A DNA stretch of 64,000 nt. Origin: Clostridia bacterium. GTDB lineage: Bacteria; Bacillota; Clostridia; Christensenellales; CAG-138. Both the position numbers and the translations under genes were made by a program. How positions within the stretch are numbered: the stretch's first letter is position 1; each line of letters starts with the position of its first letter. Positions 3,482-62,896 of this stretch are shown here, piece after piece. The notes below the pieces were generated by a model. The model made no database searches. It was not told the origin of the DNA and saw only the letters and a list, made by a program, of their open reading frames with translations. The stretch is taken from the NCBI GenBank assembly GCA_017619735.1, contig JAFZRT010000029.1, positions 14,087-78,086 of the forward strand. The letters run 5' to 3'.

Positions 3482-4504
3482 TTGAAAACATCTGATTTTT
3501 ACTACGATCTTCCGCAGGAGCTCATCGCTCAGTCGCCCTCCGAAAAGCGCGACATGTCGAGGCTCCTCGTCTATAACAGAAAGACCGGCGTCATAGAGGA
3601 CAGGGTATTCCGCGACGTCATCGAATATCTCCGCCCGGGCGACGTTCTAGTCCGCAACGTGACGAAGGTCATCCCCGCGAGACTCTATGCCAAGCGCGAG
3701 GGAACGGGAGGCGCCATGGAGTTCCTCCTGCTTAAGCGCGTCAGCGAGACCGATTGGGAATGCCTCGTAAAGCCCGGCCGCAAGGCGAGGAAGGGCAGGA
3801 CTTTCGTCGTAAACGACGAGCTTTCGGTGACAGTGCTCGATCAGCTCGAGGACGGCAACAGGATAGTCCGCCTGAACTACGAAGGCATCTTCGAAGAGGT
3901 GCTCGACCGCGCGGGAGAAATGCCGCTGCCTCCCTATATCACCAAAAAGCTGGAGGACAAGACCCGCTACCAGACCGTCTATGCGCGCGACGACGGGTCC
4001 GCCGCGGCCCCCACGGCAGGCCTACATTTCACGGACGAGCTGCTCGATAGGATAAGGGAAAAGGGCGTGCTCATAGCCGACGTGCTGCTCCACGTGGGGC
4101 TCGGTACTTTCCGCCCCGTATCCGCTGAGAACGTGGAGGAGCACCATATGCACTCCGAGTATTACAGCGTTTCGGAAGAGGCCGCGGCGCTCATAAACGG
4201 CGCAAGGGCTAACGGCGGAAGGATAATATCCGTCGGCACCACCGGCTGCCGCACGCTCGAAAGCTCCGCCGACGACAGCGGCATAGTTCACGCGGGCAGC
4301 GGATGGACCGATATTTTCATTACTCCCGGCTATAAGTTCAAAGCCGTCGACGCGCTGATCACCAACTTCCATTTGCCGGAGTCGACGCTGCTGATGCTCA
4401 TCAGCGCGTTCAGCTCCCGCGAGGAGGTAATGCGCATCTACAAGCATGCCGTCGAGGAGAGGTACAGATTCTTCTCATTCGGGGATGCGACGCTCTTTCT
4501 GTAA
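3482..4504 (+). CDS. queA: S-adenosylmethionine:tRNA ribosyltransferase-isomerase
   Basis: 340-aa ORF (TTG start). N-terminus [19 protein letters not shown] is the canonical QueA start. Followed by tgt. Confidence 0.95.
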
Positions 4505-8260: not shown

Positions 8261-9922
8261 ATGAAAGCCAGAAAGAAGAAGGAGATCAAGCGCAGGCGCA
8301 ATATGGAACGCGCTATACTGGCCTGCGGCGCGGTCGTTCTTGCGCTCGGGCTCGCGCTCGTTGTTCTCGATCTTCTTATCAAGGGCGATCATAAGTGCGC
8401 CGTCAGGGAATACAAGGAAAACAACTGGGTAAATATCGAGACCATCCCGGGCGGGAAATCCTACCGCGGCATGAGCGACGGCGAGGAGTTCGGCTATATC
8501 GACAACGGCACCTGCTTCGGCGGCATATACGTCGACGGGGTCGAACTGAAGGGCATGACCTATGACGAAGCGAGGAACGCCCTCGTCAAGGTCGTCGAGG
8601 ATAAGCTCAACGACATCAACATCGTCGTCACCGTGGGCGACGCCTGCCTCGCGCTGAGCGCAAACGACTTCAACGTCTGCGTCAACGTCAACGAGATACT
8701 GGACAGCGCGTTCAAACTCGGACGTGAGAACATAAACGACTTCGCCGCCAATTACAGGAAGCAGAAGCATCTTGAGGAGAACCCCGTCGAGTACCATATC
8801 GAGTACGTCATGGACAGGGAAAGGATAGCACAGCGCGTTGCGAACATCGCGGAGTTCGTCAACACGAAGCCCAAGGAGCCCTACGTCACGGTCAGCCAGC
8901 GTCCCTCCGCCAACTCCAATTCCTCGTCCTCCGACGATTCTCCCATCATTAGGGATAACGATACGATAGTCCAGACCGTCTACGCCAACAACGGCAAGGC
9001 GATCGGCTACATCTATTACAACCCCGGCAGGAACGGCTTCGTCCTCAATGAGGAGGATCTTATCGACAGGATCACCAACGCATTCGAAAACGGTGACATG
9101 GACTGCGTCATCTCCGCCGAGCTGGAGGATACCCCTCCCGAGAAGACGCCGGCCGACATCAAGGATTCCGTCGTTCAGATCACAAGCTATTTCTCCGATT
9201 TCGACCATGACGAGAAGGACATGAACCGCTGCCGCAATATCCAGAAGGCGGCGGGCATACTCAACGCCTGCGTCGTAAAGCCGGGCAAGGAGATCAGCTT
9301 CAATAAATACGTCGGCCCCAGGACCGAGGCGGGCGGCTGGCTCCGCGCGAAGGGCATAGTCAACGGCAAGGAGTACGAGGACAGCCCCGGCGGCGGCATC
9401 TGCCAGGTATCGGGCACCCTTTACAACGCGCTCCTGCAGTGCGGGCCCAACAAGATCAAGATCACGCAGAGGCAGCACCACAGCTGGCCGAGCTCCTACG
9501 TACCGTTCGGGCTCGACGCCACCGTCGATACGAACGGCCCCGACCTCAAGTGGAGGAACGTGTCCGATACCGCGCTCTACATTTTCACCTATGCGGACGT
9601 AAAGCACGGCAAGATGCACGTTTACATCTACGGCATCCCCGAGGAGGACGGCTCCTATTACGAGACATATGCCGAGGTGATCGAAGAGGTCCTTCCCGAA
9701 GAGCCCCTCATCATCGAGCAGCCGATGTGGCCCAGCGGCTATCAGCGCACGACCATCACGGAGAGGATAGGGTATAAGACCAAGGCGTACCTCAAGCATT
9801 TCTCCAAGGATGGCGAGCTCCTCAACACCATCTATCTCTACTCTGATTACTACTACCCCGTGCGCGGGGAGATCACGGTCGGCACAGGCCCCTCGTATCT
9901 GCCCAAGCCCGGCAGATCCTGA
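8261..9922 (+). CDS. Membrane-anchored VanW-family protein
   Basis: Track ORF 8201..9922 starts with a TTG that sits on a TGnTATAAT-like -10 (8188..8196), so ATG 8261 (MKARKKKEIK...) or 8303 is more likely. N-terminal TM segment. The C-terminal ...GGGICQVSGTLYNALL...QRQHHSWPSSYVPFGLDATV is typical of the VanW domain. Confidence 0.75.
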   Translation: MKARKKKEIKRRRNMERAILACGAVVLALGLALVVLDLLIKGDHKCAVREYKENNWVNIETIPGGKSYRGMSDGEEFGYIDNGTCFGGIYVDGVELKGMTYDEARNALVKVVEDKLNDINIVVTVGDACLALSANDFNVCVNVNEILDSAFKLGRENINDFAANYRKQKHLEENPVEYHIEYVMDRERIAQRVANIAEFVNTKPKEPYVTVSQRPSANSNSSSSDDSPIIRDNDTIVQTVYANNGKAIGYIYYNPGRNGFVLNEEDLIDRITNAFENGDMDCVISAELEDTPPEKTPADIKDSVVQITSYFSDFDHDEKDMNRCRNIQKAAGILNACVVKPGKEISFNKYVGPRTEAGGWLRAKGIVNGKEYEDSPGGGICQVSGTLYNALLQCGPNKIKITQRQHHSWPSSYVPFGLDATVDTNGPDLKWRNVSDTALYIFTYADVKHGKMHVYIYGIPEEDGSYYETYAEVIEEVLPEEPLIIEQPMWPSGYQRTTITERIGYKTKAYLKHFSKDGELLNTIYLYSDYYYPVRGEITVGTGPSYLPKPGRS

Positions 9923-11272: not shown

Positions 11273-12868
11273 ATGAAACTCAACAAGGCGATCGTCCGAA
11301 TTCTTGCCGTCGTTATGATCGCGGCTATGTCCGCCGGTCTTTTCGGCTGCGTGAGCTCGTACAACACCAACCCCACCGTTGCCAAGGTCGGCAATCAGAA
11401 GCTCGGTCTTGAGCAGTATCTTTCGCTTTACAACAACACCGATACAAGCTCCAACATTTATTATATGTACCTTCAGTACGGCGCCATCACCCGTGAGCAG
11501 TACTCCAAGTACATCCTCGAAGAGCTCGTGAACTACGGCGTGCAGCTCGACCAGATCGAGAAGCAGGGCGTAAAGCTCGACGATGAAGAGGAAGCCAAGC
11601 TCCAGCAGGACGTCGAGGATACCGTCAAGGAACAGGTCAACAAGAACTTCCTCGATAAGGTCGATTCTTCCATCACCGACGAGGCCGCCAAGTACGAAGC
11701 CGCCCTTGAGCTCCTCAAGGCCGACCTCAAGAAGAACGGCGTCAAGTTCGAGGATTACCGCGCCAATATCGAGAAGAACCTTCGCACCACCGCCCTCATC
11801 AGCAAGCTTCGCGAAGTCAACATCGCCGACGTTACCGTTTCCAACGACGACGTCAAGAAGTATTTCGAGGACAACGTCAAGACCACCATCTCGGCCTCCG
11901 ATTTCAGGACTGCGTTCAACAACTTCATGACCGCTTCCACCACGATCGCGCCCCTCTTCATGCCCCATCCCGAAAGGGCCGTTGAGGACGATCCCGAGAC
12001 CACCGATAAGGACGAGTCCAAGGACGCCGATCCCTACGGCGAGTTCTTCTCCGTCGTGCATCTGCTCATGAAGTTCGAGACCGGCGCCGGCGCCGACGTC
12101 ACCGACCTTGCTGAGTATGCCGCCGGCGATAAGACCCTCACCGACAAGATGAACGAGTTCGAAGCCACCATCGGCACCCTCACCACCGAGGATTTCATCG
12201 CCAAGTGCTTCGATAAGGATAGCAACGACGATGCGGGCATGCAGCAGACCGCTTATCAGTACTTCGGCTATCTCATGCAGGCGTCCATTCTCGATTCCTA
12301 CTACAAGGGATTCGGCTACGCTTCCATGAAGCTCAAGTTCGGCGAGGATTGGGAACCCGTCAAGGACTCCGAGACCTCCACTGCCGAGCCCGAGACCTAT
12401 GACGTCAAGTTCTTCGATCTTGCCGACGGCGCCAAGATCGTCAAGGTCTACACCACCTCCGGCGCTCATTACATCATCCTGAACCCCAACGACTGCTTCA
12501 GCATGTACGATGACGACGGTTATCTCATGGTCCCCCTTTATGAGGACGATAACCCCGTTACCGCCGGCGAAGGCATCCTCACCGCCAACGGCGGCCATAT
12601 GACCCAGGCGCAGCTCGACGCGATCAACGCGATCCTCGCAAACGTCAAGGAGCCCGTTGAGGAGGAGGCCCAGAAGGATACCGAGACCGAAACCGAGGAG
12701 CACAAAGAGGAGGAGCCCTACACCCTCAAGACCCTGTATGAGAACATCCGCGATGCCAAGCTGACCTCCATGCAGAGCGAGGCCTTCAACAACAAGTTCA
12801 ACGAGTGGAAGGAGAACACCAAGATCGTCCGCTACGAGAACATCATCAAGTCCTTCGGTCAGGGCTGA
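11273..12868 (+). CDS. Lipoprotein, SurA-N/PrsA-like foldase-type extracytoplasmic protein (no clear PPIase core seen)
   Basis: 531-aa ORF with lipobox MKLNK...AGLFGC. N-terminal VAKVGNQKLGLEQY resembles SurA/PrsA N-domains. Acidic Lys/Glu/Asp-rich body. Confidence 0.55.
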   Translation: MKLNKAIVRILAVVMIAAMSAGLFGCVSSYNTNPTVAKVGNQKLGLEQYLSLYNNTDTSSNIYYMYLQYGAITREQYSKYILEELVNYGVQLDQIEKQGVKLDDEEEAKLQQDVEDTVKEQVNKNFLDKVDSSITDEAAKYEAALELLKADLKKNGVKFEDYRANIEKNLRTTALISKLREVNIADVTVSNDDVKKYFEDNVKTTISASDFRTAFNNFMTASTTIAPLFMPHPERAVEDDPETTDKDESKDADPYGEFFSVVHLLMKFETGAGADVTDLAEYAAGDKTLTDKMNEFEATIGTLTTEDFIAKCFDKDSNDDAGMQQTAYQYFGYLMQASILDSYYKGFGYASMKLKFGEDWEPVKDSETSTAEPETYDVKFFDLADGAKIVKVYTTSGAHYIILNPNDCFSMYDDDGYLMVPLYEDDNPVTAGEGILTANGGHMTQAQLDAINAILANVKEPVEEEAQKDTETETEEHKEEEPYTLKTLYENIRDAKLTSMQSEAFNNKFNEWKENTKIVRYENIIKSFGQG

Positions 12869-60599: not shown

Positions 60600-61346
60600 T
60601 TATGCCGAAACAAGCTTCAGGAACTTGGCGTCGTTCATCTGCTCGTTCGTTAAGTACTCGCCGTTTCGGAAGAGAGCGTAATTCGTTACCGGAGTTGGCG
60701 CGTTCTGTGCCTCATCCTTTGTCTGCAGCTTTATCGCCTTGAACGGTATCCCTTGCTCTGCCGCGGTCTTTTCGATTATGGGAACGTACTTTGCGTTGAA
60801 CGGGCACTGATCGGTGTAATAGAGCACATACCCTTGTTCGTCGATATGAGGATGCTTTGCGCATTCCATGAAACGCGGCTTTTCGGAGCTTTCGGAGAAC
60901 GGCAGATACCAGAGCTGGATGCCGCAATCGGATTCGTCGCTGACGGAAAAGCCCTTATATTTCAAGTACTTCGGATCGGCGAGGAAAGGTTTTTTCTTGG
61001 CGGAGGAAAGAATGCAGAGGCCCTTCCTCCCCTTCTCCTTGCTGTCTGCAATGCATGCGTTGAGCAGATCATTCGAATAGCCATGCCCTTTGAAGGAGCC
61101 GGAGACCCACAGACAGTCGATGTACGTGTATCCATCGGCTTCTATGGGGATCCATGCGTTCTCGGCGGGTATGTATTCGATAAAGCATTTTCCGCGCTCG
61201 ATGCTCTTCAGGAATACAAGACCTTCGCTGAACCGCTCCAGCATCCAATCCTTTTTCGAAGCGACCTGAACATCCTTGTTGTTGGATATAGCACAGCAGA
61301 TGTGCTCTTTGTCGATGTTTTCCGCGGTTACTCTGATATAGTCCAT
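60600..61346 (-). CDS. GNAT-family N-acetyltransferase with YoaP-like C-terminal domain
   Basis: 248 aa. N-terminal GNAT core (CLWVSGSFKGHGYSNDLL). The C-terminal region with YYTDQCPF...ALFRNGEYLTNE matches what I remember of the YoaP-like domain. Confidence 0.65.
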   Translation of the reverse strand: MDYIRVTAENIDKEHICCAISNNKDVQVASKKDWMLERFSEGLVFLKSIERGKCFIEYIPAENAWIPIEADGYTYIDCLWVSGSFKGHGYSNDLLNACIADSKEKGRKGLCILSSAKKKPFLADPKYLKYKGFSVSDESDCGIQLWYLPFSESSEKPRFMECAKHPHIDEQGYVLYYTDQCPFNAKYVPIIEKTAAEQGIPFKAIKLQTKDEAQNAPTPVTNYALFRNGEYLTNEQMNDAKFLKLVSA

Positions 61347-61448
61347 TTTATTCGTCTCCGTTCCGATATTGCTACCGCCGCCGGGGATGCGCCGTCTGTG
61401 AAGATTATATCAGTATCTGGGCGATAACACAAGATTAGAATGTGAGAA

Positions 61449-61507
61449 GGGATGGATTCGCCCGCCTGCGGGCGGTCCGGGGCCTGCTCTGACCATCCAC
61501 CGGATGG
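61449..61507 (-). repeat. 59-nt GC-rich repeat, copy 1 (truncated version of the structured unit), starting with a tRNA-Tyr 3'-end fragment
   Basis: Identical to 61671..61729 except at 61485 (T vs G) and 61499 (A vs G). It begins with GGGATGGATTCG, the tRNA-Tyr T-arm/acceptor 3' segment. Confidence 0.85.
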
Positions 61508-61609
61508 GGATGGATTCTGAACCCCCGCTTCGCAGTTACTTGTTTGTAATATAAACTGTATGAGCGAAGCTCTGTGAGATTTTCTGCGAAAATCTCGATG
61601 GTTCAGAAT
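61506..61609. repeat. Imperfect inverted repeat built from T-arm-like fragments, enclosing two small perfect hairpins
   Basis: The left arm read on the minus strand is CTGCGAAGCGGGGGTTCAGAATCCATCCCC. The right arm read on the plus strand is CTGCGAAAATCTCGATGGTTCAGAAT (61584..61609). Both carry the variant T-loop TTCAGAAT. Internal hairpins are GAGC-GAA-GCTC and GAGATTTTC-TGC-GAAAATCTC. Confidence 0.6.
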
Positions 61610-61626
61610 ACTTTGTTCCGGCGAAT

Positions 61627-61659
61627 AAAAGATCACGGCGCTGTGCACCGTGATCTTTT
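61627..61659. terminator. Strong bidirectional hairpin terminator
   Basis: AAAAGATCACGG-(9 nt)-CCGTGATCTTTT: a 12-bp stem including the A/T runs. It lies immediately 3' (minus sense) of repeat copy 2. Confidence 0.7.
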
Positions 61660-61661
61660 AT

Positions 61662-61757
61662 TGGTGGACGGGGATGGATTCGCCCGCCTGCGGGCGGTCC
61701 GGGGCCGGCTCTGACCATCCGCCGGATGGTCATTCACTCCCGGCCCTTCGAATCCAT
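61662..61757 (-). ncRNA. Candidate structured small RNA (three-way junction) ending in the tRNA-Tyr 3' tail; contains repeat copy 2
   Basis: Base-checked helices, in plus-strand coordinates:
- P1: 61674..61682 with 61749..61757 (9 bp)
- P2: 61702..61708 with 61740..61746 (7 bp)
- P2b: 61712..61720 with 61724..61732 (9 bp)
- P3: 61681..61686 with 61691..61696 (6 bp, tetraloop)
The 3' tail CCCCGUCCACCA is identical to the tRNA-Tyr end. Terminators bound it on both sides. Not assignable to any RNA family I know. Confidence 0.4.
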
Positions 61758-61774
61758 TACATAACATGACCAAC

Positions 61775-61798
61775 AAAAAAACCGGCATGCGCCGGTCT
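61775..61798 (-). terminator. Rho-independent terminator directly after tRNA-Tyr
   Basis: Minus strand reads AGACCGGC-GCAT-GCCGGT followed by TTTTTTTG. Confidence 0.7.
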
Positions 61799-61804
61799 AT
61801 TTGT

Positions 61805-61889
61805 TGGTGGACGGGGATGGATTCGAACCATCGTAGTCTGTGACAACGGATTTACAGTCCGCTCCCTTTGGCCGCTCGGGAACCCGTCC
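61805..61889 (-). tRNA. tRNA-Tyr (anticodon GTA), type II with long variable arm, CCA encoded
   Basis: The minus strand folds as GGACGGG-TT-CCC-GAGCGGCCAAA-GGG-A-GCGGA-CTGTAAA-TCCGT-TGTCACAGACTAC-GATGG-TTCGAAT-CCATC-CCCGTCC-A-CCA. Cloverleaf checked by hand. Confidence 0.93.
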
Positions 61890-61910
61890 GTATTCGATTG
61901 CAACGATGCT

Positions 61911-61938
61911 ATTATACATGATTTTCGCGGTTTGTCAA
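61911..61938 (-). promoter_or_regulatory. Sigma-A promoter of tRNA-Tyr
   Basis: Minus strand reads TTGACA (61938..61933), 16 nt, TATAAT (61916..61911), about 20 nt upstream of the mature 5' end. Confidence 0.6.
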
Positions 61939-62038
61939 CACACATTTTTCGTCTTTTTTCGATCATGTCATTGCCCGCCGCCCCGCATGGTGTTATACTT
62001 ATCAAGAAGAATGCTTCATTCAATAAGGAGGATTTCAG

Positions 62039-62896
62039 ATGAAAGAACTGTTCGGCGCTGATATCACGACGCTCAGGAAAAACGACGAATTCGACTGCGT
62101 CGGTTACGAAACCAAAAAGATCTCCGATGAGCTCAACGGAAGTATCGAAGCCCTTTCCGACAGCGCAGAAAAGTTAGACGAAGAGACGTCGCTGCCCAAA
62201 GCTCTCCGGATACTTCAATGGGCGGCCGGTATTGGCGTATTGCTGATCGCCAGCGGGATCATCCGCAATATAGGCGATCTTCCGTTCTCGCAAATGTTCG
62301 CCAACGCACCGTGGCTCTTCGTTGTAGCCGGCATACTCGCCGTGGTCTGGGCGGCTCTCTTTATCGCCTCCATCATGAAGAAAAAGAGCGTTGCCGAAAC
62401 GGGTGTGATCGATGATTTCAAACAGGTCGTGGACGAAACGCTTGAAAAAGCCATGGCGGAGCTCAACGTTCCCGATAACGCCGAAAAGATCGACGCGCTT
62501 CTTTACAGGTACAAAACGAAGAACGGCGAAAACAAGATCTTTGATTATTCGCTTATCGGCCATTTCACGAACTCGACCGCTTACGTCTTCGGTCAGAACG
62601 GATGCTTCTGCATATTCGACGGCGGCAGCAGATTCGATATCCCTATGAAGGATCTGAAGCGGATCGAGATCGTAAGAAAGAAGATGTCTCTCATGGGCTG
62701 GAACAAGGACGTGGATTTCAACAAAGAGCCGTACAGGGAATACACCATGCCCAATGAGGACGGTTACGGCAGGATATGGCTCCGCTCGCACTGCAGGCTG
62801 ATATTCGACCTTCAGGGAGAGGAGTTCTGTTTCCGTTTCCCCGAATACGATCTCGGCGCGGTAGAGGCGATCACCGGCTTGAGAGCCGAAGAATGA
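62039..62896 (+). CDS. Hypothetical membrane protein (285 aa, two central TM helices)
   Basis: ATG behind AAGGAGG. TM segments ILQWAAGIGVLLIASGII and WLFVVAGILAVVWAALFIASI. No recognised motif. Confidence 0.5.
   Translation: MKELFGADITTLRKNDEFDCVGYETKKISDELNGSIEALSDSAEKLDEETSLPKALRILQWAAGIGVLLIASGIIRNIGDLPFSQMFANAPWLFVVAGILAVVWAALFIASIMKKKSVAETGVIDDFKQVVDETLEKAMAELNVPDNAEKIDALLYRYKTKNGENKIFDYSLIGHFTNSTAYVFGQNGCFCIFDGGSRFDIPMKDLKRIEIVRKKMSLMGWNKDVDFNKEPYREYTMPNEDGYGRIWLRSHCRLIFDLQGEEFCFRFPEYDLGAVEAITGLRAEE

Follow-up and report, generated by a model that had tools for sequence, protein, structure and literature searches.

What kind of element ends in the 3' end of a neighbouring tRNA gene, CCA included, without being a tRNA? 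The question is raised by 96 nucleotides (nt) on the minus strand, AUGGAUUCGAAGGGCCGGGAGUGAAUGACCAUCCGGCGGAUGGUCAGAGCCGGCCCCGGACCGCCCGCAGGCGGGCGAAUCCAUCCCCGUCCACCA (61662-61757), in a 64,000-nt stretch of a Clostridia bacterium genome (contig JAFZRT010000029.1, positions 14,087 to 78,086), which is called the window here. An initial annotation, made from the letters alone, had described these bases as copy 2 of a repeat behind tRNA-Tyr and as a candidate three-way-junction RNA lying between two terminators, which might be a tRNA mimic, the remnant of a recombination site or a mere product of GC-richness. The results of this study place copy 2, as an intact representative, in a superfamily of short protein-less insertion modules that lie behind tRNA and transfer-messenger RNA (tmRNA) genes of Oscillospirales-type Clostridia. 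We see about an even chance that it is a non-autonomous mobile or duplicative element, which homes to the conserved palindromic T-loop box of such genes and carries arms derived from its target. The parts of the window copy are as follows.

61757-61749 with 61682-61674, minus strand: helix P1, AUGGAUUCG/CGAAUCCAU, predicted fold
61702..61746, minus strand: P2 domain, made of P2a, the invariant asymmetric internal loop GAGUGAA / GAG and P2b; the signature module of the family
Within the P2 domain, minus strand: helix P2a, GGGCCGG/CCGGCCC, 7 bp, predicted fold
Within the P2 domain, minus strand: helix P2b, UGACCAUCC/GGAUGGUCA, 9 bp, with loop GGC, predicted fold
61684..61697, minus strand: hairpin P3, CCGCC-CGCA-GGCGG, from the fold and the family consensus
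61747..61757, minus strand: antisense copy ATGGATTCGAA, which is tRNA-Tyr positions 54-64 in reverse complement and whose first 9 nt are the 5' strand of P1
61662..61682, minus strand: sense copy CGAATCCATCCCCGTCCACCA, tRNA-Tyr positions 56-76, forming the 3' strand of P1 and a 12-nt tail
61758..61768, minus strand: spacer, the site where less-decayed relatives hold the acceptor-stem part of the antisense tRNA copy

The minimum free energy fold predicted for these 96 nt is a three-way junction of four helices with a free 3' tail of 12 nt (CCCCGUCCACCA) that is single-stranded in the prediction. It is the fold that the initial annotation had worked out by hand; only the register given there for P3, CGCCCG-CAGG-CGGGCG, is off by one relative to the family consensus, while the hairpin itself is present. 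The exact recurrence of the last 21 nt of tRNA-Tyr at 61662-61682 likewise bears out the identity of the tail with the tRNA 3' end. The predicted energy is -49.3 kcal/mol, compared with -38.9 +/- 3.5 kcal/mol in dinucleotide shuffles (z = -3.03), and 0 of 200 shuffles were as stable. A chance fold of GC-rich DNA beside a duplicated tRNA end could be proposed on the ground that the region has a GC content of 0.70 and that GC-rich sequence folds well. However, the shuffles fold worse, and in more than 180 homologs the helices are maintained by compensatory changes, which refutes the suggestion that the element folds well merely because of its composition, and we regard a chance fold as hardly conceivable.

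Full-length relatives at 73-94% identity were found in several genera when the 96 nt were compared by BLAST with 200 genomes of the same family. A scan with the invariant stretch AGTGAATGR-N4-CC-N3-GG-N4-YCAGAGC matched at least 120 stretches in a species-representative genome collection, nearly all of them in gut or rumen metagenome-assembled Oscillospiraceae, Acutalibacteraceae or 'Clostridiales', and also matched 19 viral contigs. Across 151 distinct pattern-anchored copies, aligned without gaps, P2b was Watson-Crick paired in 1342 of 1359 cells and each of its four central pairs used three to four pair types. A covariance model built from seven copies gave 119 matches in 96 fetched loci. 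In the alignment of these matches 92.4% of the base-pair cells were paired (70.1% in shuffles), 31 of 33 pairs showed double-sided changes (shuffle mean 24.0) and 656 cells were compensatory (174 in shuffles), whereas sliding the partners by 1-3 columns left just 30-48% of cells paired. This alignment was fitted to the model and is therefore biased towards it in P1 and P3, while the pattern-anchored count for P2b is independent of it; MAFFT and RNAalifold on unanchored sequences recovered P2 only, so that the model-based alignment was needed.

Compensatory changes were also seen among orthologous tRNA-Tyr copies within the window's genus, where P2b is GACCAUCC/GGAUGGUC in the window and GACCGUCC/GGACGGUC in orthologs; P2a of the window copy has one C-G pair more than the congener orthologs, and in P3 a C-G pair is replaced by U-A in relative L015. 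With abundant compensatory changes in P1, P2 and P3 and with shuffles that fold more weakly, two of the three outcomes that the initial annotation had named as fatal to its idea, an absence of covariation and equally good shuffled folds, did not occur. Judged by comparison among homologs, the 96-base fold is a real, evolutionarily conserved three-way junction of a large family.

The tip of P2b reads CC-NNN-GG in all copies, the CC and GG being fixed by the pattern, and the same tip occurs in another core type (type 3, described below). The apical loop (window 61721-61723) is GGU in 94 of the 151 copies, and pairing of UGG with CCA, either in the tail or in a tRNA, is conceivable, in the way of a T-box bulge. 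An extra hairpin domain of about 60-70 nt stands between P2a and P3 in L192 (tRNA-Leu(TAA) of genome G172) and L203 (tRNA-Gln of G107). Several known motifs were considered by eye or by length and rejected. The J2/3 strand CUGACCGAG ... GAGA is hammerhead-like in some copies, but it is not conserved in the window or in Ser-type copies and there is no Rfam ribozyme hit; the AGUGAA/GAG loop exceeds a standard K-turn by one nucleotide and is at most K-turn-like or loop-E-like; and P2b, with 9 bp, is too long for a T-box double T-loop. The initial annotation recognised no matching RNA family, and Rfam 15 gave no relevant match at E<=10 in window 61000-62100. A published description of the family was not found in a literature search. 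A novel tmRNA was proposed for the 84-bp gut-microbiome candidate HMP2_734, of which 1 of 36 instances was called a tmRNA by ARAGORN (Fremin and Bhatt 2021, PMC8040213). This candidate might be an element of the same kind.

The tail and P1 of the copies agree with whichever tRNA or tmRNA gene lies upstream. For 65 copies, a co-oriented tRNA or tmRNA gene ends 35-360 nt, mostly 55-81 nt, upstream of the module. These genes are for Tyr, Ser, Leu, Pro, Arg, Asp, Gln, Gly, Glu, Met, Lys, Ala, Val, Trp and tmRNA, with at least 15 tRNA species, and the orientation of such copies (class A) is always that of the upstream gene. The order of parts is constant: a bidirectional terminator hairpin abutting the CCA of the tRNA, an antisense copy from the T-loop to the 3' end, the structured core, and a sense copy of about positions 56-76, with the two tRNA-derived copies pairing to close the three-way junction. 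The whole module measures about 140-200 bp and encodes no protein, and its two repeats are consistently spaced about 120-170 bp apart. The sense copy begins at tRNA position 55-57, most often at C56, with direct repeats 12-24 nt long as the result at most of the 65 loci; it reaches A76 exactly in about half of the copies, while in about half the 3' end is degenerate and the junction is intact. The antisense copy starts at the complement of G53/T54 and matches exactly over 8-20 nt, usually 8-14 nt. It covers the whole acceptor strand, at 18-20 nt, in L019, the second copy of L031/L196 and L060, and in L029 a complement of 23 nt reaches the CC of CCA (by eye). In the least-decayed copies (L029, L196 and Gly(GCC) of the window's genome), a single long near-perfect palindrome centred on the terminator loop extends from the tRNA 3' end through the terminator and the antisense copy. 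Because non-palindromic T-loops, as in tRNA-Pro (ATTTGAA against TTCAAAT), appear in antisense, the 5' strand is a true reverse complement of the tRNA. A simple insertion of the core into the T-arm was rejected, since the 5' strand is this reverse complement and not the 5' half of the T-arm.

These comparisons change how the tRNA-like features of the window copy should be read. The acceptor 5' strand is usually decayed across the copies, and the window copy keeps just the inner 11 nt of the antisense copy, which is why the initial annotation saw no acceptor 5' strand; that observation holds for the window copy and fails for the family, some relatives of which have a perfect antisense copy of 20-23 nt of the tRNA 3' end. 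By comparison with L029, L019 and L196, the acceptor-stem part would have been lost or have decayed in the window spacer. The statement that the element is not a tRNA stands, as ARAGORN finds just tRNA-Tyr in the window and cmscan at E<=10 gave no tRNA hit on 61662-61757, and only tRNA positions of about 54-76 are represented in the element; the missing acceptor strand given as the reason does not hold family-wide. Nor is it a tmRNA: neither ARAGORN nor Rfam called one in the window, and true tmRNA genes sit upstream of some members, which copy the tmRNA 3' end. The suggested mimicry of a substrate for processing, aminoacylation or CCA addition is not supported by these observations. The tail copies whichever tRNA or tmRNA lies upstream and is not specific to tRNA-Tyr, and about half of the copies have a degenerate tail. 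Decay has usually affected the 5' strand of the acceptor as well, and the majority of copies stand behind a terminator without a promoter of their own. A tRNA-mimic function is the least supported part of the earlier description, and a complete tail is fully paired, discriminator and CC included.

Of the 240 genomes searched in the family, 27 have the type-1 module, that of copy 2 (a reversed control pattern gave 0). It is present in 16 of 17 genomes of genus g29 with 1-12 copies each, in 7 of 13 genomes of the window's genus with 1-3 each, and in three others. Individual genomes of g29 have it downstream of 10-12 different tRNA genes. A g29 genome that is 95% complete (G091) has no copy, and its tRNA-Ser genes are directly followed by a terminator. 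The operon Pro-Glu-Met-Asp-Thr-Tyr-Leu harbours the element in G054 and G147. At the Tyr|Leu junction the congener G083 has an empty site (Tyr-TTTTTTTAT-Leu), G005, G054 and G147 have type 1, and G156 and G114 have other cores. Comparison of filled and empty sites indicates that the inserted DNA consists of the terminator, the antisense copy, the core and the 21-nt sense copy. Except in tandem arrays, the two terminators that bracket an element are not related to one another, and the terminator was therefore rejected as a target-site duplication. Tandem arrays and truncated copies occur, many pattern matches lie at contig ends, and some copies stand between tRNA-Asp and tRNA-Gly in operons without a terminator.

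About 12 of the 42 tRNA genes in the window's own genome (G000) are followed by an antisense copy of their T-loop and T-stem (at about +45), by a sense copy of their 3' end (at +140 to +260), or by both, around other structured cores. The commonest of these, type 3, shares with type 1 a GGGCGG/CCGCCC stem and a CCGGUGR hairpin tip and differs in its internal loop and its long P3. The loci with other cores are given below.

C6 33839-34200: other core
C8 38992-39350: other core
C19 52139-52500: other core
C48 63225-63600: other core
C21 31000-31265: other core
C25 66405-66800: other core
C49: other core
C58: other core
C16: other core

A direct repeat of a tRNA 3' segment bounding an insert (21 nt and exact in the window) is also what a tyrosine-integrase island leaves, and the elements could be read as attL/attR scars of mostly deleted islands or prophages, like cis-mobilizable elements (CIMEs) and possibly mobilisable in trans. 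Attachment (att) sites of the T-loop class in tRNA genes reportedly span the T-loop to CCA, as Williams is said to have described in 2002, and the direct repeat has the same span; a reconstituted tRNA is followed by foreign DNA and a new terminator, and arrays lie behind one tRNA, for which the ssrA-island arrays of Dehalococcoides offer a precedent (PMC3146451). A viral contig (L171, 1-700) begins inside a tRNA 3' end; a class A element flanked by two terminators comes next, and Mu-like baseplate genes follow, so that a Mu-like prophage lies just beyond the copy; this prophage may have used the sense copy of the element, or the array, as its attachment site. However, scars would not be expected to share the same core of about 70 nt, with compensatory changes, at no fewer than 15 tRNA species and tmRNA, and independent deletions would yield neither the constant interval nor the fixed order of parts. 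The target-matched antisense copy is also left unexplained. Moreover, no cognate tyrosine integrase was found: in five genomes the tyrosine recombinase profile PF00589, the only recombinase family covered, gave 3-7 matches each, none of them less than 10 kb from an element, although a single genome can have 10-12 tRNA loci that bear the element. An origin as attachment-site scars thus seems very improbable to us. The earlier suggestion of a recombination-site remnant came closer to the evidence than that of a mimic, but it is too weak for an element that is conserved, multi-copy and matched to its site, and that is no scar.

In the window, the element belongs to an array of three units, in the order tRNA-Tyr, T1, type 1 (copy 2), T2, type 2 and truncated type 1 (copy 1), with the following features.

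61805..61889, minus strand: tRNA-Tyr(GTA), called by ARAGORN and by the Rfam tRNA model (53.7 bits); source gene of the copied 3' end
61911..61938, minus strand: tRNA-Tyr promoter TTGACA-16-TATAAT, a perfect sigma-70-type site and the sole promoter-like site upstream of the element on the same strand
61769..61808, no strand assigned: terminator palindrome T1, stem 61779-61798, from inverted-repeat and terminator scans
61624..61662, no strand assigned: terminator-like palindrome T2, an 18-nt, 94% inverted repeat followed by a T-run and overlapping the copied ACCA
61440..61507, minus strand: copy 1, a 5'-truncated type 1 with half of P2b, the 3' strand of P2a, P3, the 3' strand of P1 and a degenerate tail GAATCCATCCCTTCTCACAT
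61508..61611, minus strand: type-2 element, with a different core and the same design, directly after T2; predicted three-way junction

The extended arms of T1 pair the ACCAAC... of the tRNA with ...GTTGGT, and an A-tract and a T-tract make it bidirectional. The terminator scan called T1 as the terminator that ends tRNA-Tyr, in agreement with the initial annotation; the second terminator proposed there has its inverted repeat and T-run, but the simple scan made no call for it. No promoter-like site was found between T1 and the element in a promoter scan of the window. Copy 1 matches copy 2 over 59 nt (61449-61507) with 97% identity and is joined to the type-2 unit at a CCATCC microhomology; being 5'-truncated, it is the relic and copy 2 the intact unit, as had been suggested, and the A/G difference between them does sit in the P2b loop. 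In the type-2 element ATTCTGAACC pairs with GGTTCAGAAT (the T-loop with one extra A), closing two hairpins, and the tRNA-like tail ends early, after GAATCCATCC. Homologs of type 2 lie behind tRNA-Tyr in G147, G156, G005 and G100, with a covarying hairpin (GAGAUUUUC/GAAAAUCUC, AGAAAUCG/CGAUUUCU, GAGAAUUC/GAAUUCUC). The adjoining genes are housekeeping genes (a GNAT/YoaP acetyltransferase, an amino-acid kinase and a pantothenate-kinase-like protein).

About 80-90 pattern matches have the same P2-P3 module without tRNA flanks (class B; L168, L170, L174 and about 70 bacterial loci). They are framed by 5' CCCCU...AGGGGUA(A)GCGAAGCG and, in most, by an extra 3' hairpin and UGAGGGG, and two (G)AGGGG runs further downstream are alternative possible pairing partners of the 5' CCCCU. 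Class B copies are intergenic, the nearest upstream open reading frame is co-oriented in 72%, and no recurrent protein neighbour was found among their adjoining genes, which are unrelated. A P22-like phage contig (L170) carries three copies in both orientations (4439-4469, 9077-9107 and 12727-12757). In the bacterial locus L074 (910-1214) a copy lies in a repeated unit of about 290 bp with terminal inverted repeats of 53 nt that are 77% complementary, and solitary copies of the repeat arm occur nearby, in the manner of miniature inverted-repeat transposable elements (MITEs). Four phage loci of class B had no Rfam match at E<=0.1, and an isolate-phage collection had no match for class A or class B.

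Which strand folds can be judged from the non-Watson-Crick pairs, which on the tRNA-sense strand comprise 23 G-U and 14 A-C in P1, 22 and 5 in P2a, 4 and 6 in P2b, and 35 and 29 in P3; wobble pairs are rare, at about 3% of pair cells. The surplus of G-U in P2a and P1 points to the tRNA-sense strand as the folding strand, and RNA and single-stranded DNA are not told apart by it. A family of expressed tRNA-trailer RNAs could be proposed, in which a read-through or operon transcript is trimmed by tRNA-processing enzymes and the junction, with its invariant internal loop and CC-NNN-GG tip, binds a protein or an RNA; the tRNA-derived helix would be only a closing stem and processing handle. The strong covariation, the constant orientation, the P2a pairs, the copies between tRNA-Asp and tRNA-Gly, the many copies with a downstream terminator of their own and the orthologous loci kept across g29 species with compensatory changes would all fit such an RNA, and the invariant asymmetric loop would be typical of protein-binding RNA motifs. 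On the other hand, most copies lie behind a strong intrinsic terminator and are promoterless, the nearly complete congener G091 lacks the family, and the core module is patchy with a variable copy number. Similarly, several unrelated cores share the same flanks, the class B module stands in both orientations relative to phage genes, and G-U is very rare in P2b. We regard this possibility as rather unlikely, though it is the strongest of the rival readings.

The non-autonomous mobile or duplicative element that we favour would use GGTTCGAATCC, the near-universal palindromic T-loop box, to home to tRNA-type genes, and the repeats on its flanks would be taken from the local target or selected to match it. 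A folded single strand, DNA or RNA, may be the form that is recognised or propagated, and spread might proceed through T-loop pairing, either by guide-like integration of this strand or by a switch of template at the TTCGAA palindrome and at the hairpin of the terminator. The mobile reading is favoured by target-matched arms at a minimum of 15 tRNA species, by filled and empty sites in congeners, by arrays, truncations and several cores with one design, by phage-borne copies and by the terminator before most copies. The few tyrosine recombinase matches per genome, all distant from the elements, argue that any such element is non-autonomous. A constraint on a folded single strand, possibly RNA, is indicated by orthologs kept with compensatory changes, by the fixed orientation and by the copies inside tRNA operons.

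Several results weigh against this reading. No mobilising enzyme was found in the searches for Y1 transposase, reverse transcriptase and tyrosine recombinase: the Y1 (IS200/RAYT) transposase PF01797 and the reverse transcriptase PF00078 each occur in just 2 of 17 g29 genomes and are not linked to the element, and for the reverse transcriptase a past or phage-borne activity is possible. There is no conventional target-site duplication, and the empty palindromic target GGGATTCGAATCCC, in which antisense is joined to sense, gave 4 chance matches in coding DNA among the 240 genomes. The persistence of orthologous copies across congeners with compensatory changes also fits a host function, and the predominance of G-U over A-C in P2a favours the tRNA-sense strand and is compatible with RNA. 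Judging from their position, the operon copies between tRNA-Asp and tRNA-Gly must be transcribed.

Enzyme-free spread could also be the whole story, through template switching in replication or ectopic gene conversion. Snap-back synthesis at the terminator palindrome would make the antisense copy, the TTCGAA palindrome would let the nascent end re-anneal either way, and a strongly folding insert would thereby be copied between tRNA loci. The long near-perfect palindromes of the less-decayed copies, the junctions at the T-loop palindrome and the lack of linkage to transposase, reverse transcriptase or integrase agree with this explanation. However, it is inferential, antisense-sense palindromes without a core were not found in the 240 genomes, and the conserved core fold with its invariant loop, as well as the class B copies without tRNA flanks, would be unexplained. 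As a complete account we consider it improbable.

Each of the nearest described systems shares some features with the element and fails on a defining one. The attL/attR duplications and CIMEs have the direct repeat from T-loop to CCA, the regenerated tRNA followed by foreign DNA and the arrays behind one tRNA or tmRNA, whereas the element is only about 150 bp long, has no integrase in or near it, occurs with a related core at 15 or more tRNA species within one genome, adds an antisense target copy that pairs with the sense copy, and has an internal fold that is conserved and covarying. Repetitive extragenic palindromic (REP) sequences and REPINs, and MITEs (REP with RAYT, Correia, BOX and RUP) are likewise short, multi-copy, protein-less, hairpin-forming and intergenic, often lie 3' of transcription units, are patchy and break assemblies. 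In contrast to them, the terminal inverted repeats of the element are the local tRNA 3' end and so vary with the tRNA, class A is strictly behind tRNA or tmRNA genes, and Y1/RAYT is absent from 15 of 17 g29 genomes. As in integron attC sites and CTX-phage attP(+), a hairpin stem imitates a double-stranded target, conserved unpaired bases stand in an asymmetric loop, the stem covaries almost wholly by Watson-Crick pairs, and cassette-like arrays form by one fixed site. By eye, the T-loop GTTCGAA and its complement TTCGAAC fit the RYYYAAC / GTTRRRY core sites at 5 of 7 positions. Unlike attC, however, the stems of the element differ with each target and the cassettes carry no genes, and integrons are not known from this phylum.

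The tRNA-like 3' structures and minihelix mimics (the tRNA-like domain of tmRNA, YrlA and viral ones) resemble the element in their T-stem and acceptor 3' strand ending in NCCA, and share with the less-decayed copies a continuous acceptor/T helix. The element differs from them in having no D-arm or anticodon arm, a 65-nt domain in place of the T-loop and an acceptor 5' strand that is usually decayed; unlike in any known tRNA mimic, the complete antisense copy also pairs the discriminator and the CC, and no tRNA or tmRNA model matches. Like structured RNA genes in general, the element has helices with compensatory substitutions. The Mauriceville retroplasmid of Neurospora integrates at mitochondrial tRNA genes through hybrid tRNA-plasmid cDNAs and is a mechanistic analogy for tRNA-templated arms; no reverse transcriptase is linked to the elements studied here. 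We suggest, tentatively and with clearly less than even confidence, that the elements represent an undescribed class, either a mobile module that lacks an enzyme of its own, bears a guide or is templated by its target, recognises tRNA-type genes by base pairing at the conserved T-loop and builds antisense and sense arms matched to the target, or a widespread tRNA-linked RNA system with a dedicated protein partner that binds the invariant AGUGAA/GAG loop.

About 30% of the tRNA genes in the window's genome, and up to a dozen loci per genome in a related genus, bear a conserved folded element that is absent from the catalogues and literature searched. For the annotation of gut and rumen metagenome-assembled genomes this matters, as the copies break assemblies and can mimic att sites or fragments of tRNA and tmRNA genes. 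If the elements are RNA, they would be among the more abundant unannotated structured RNA families of gut Clostridia and their phages. If they are mobile, they would target tRNA genes without an element-encoded enzyme and with arms matched to the target, which would bear on the origin of tRNA genes as hot spots of integration.

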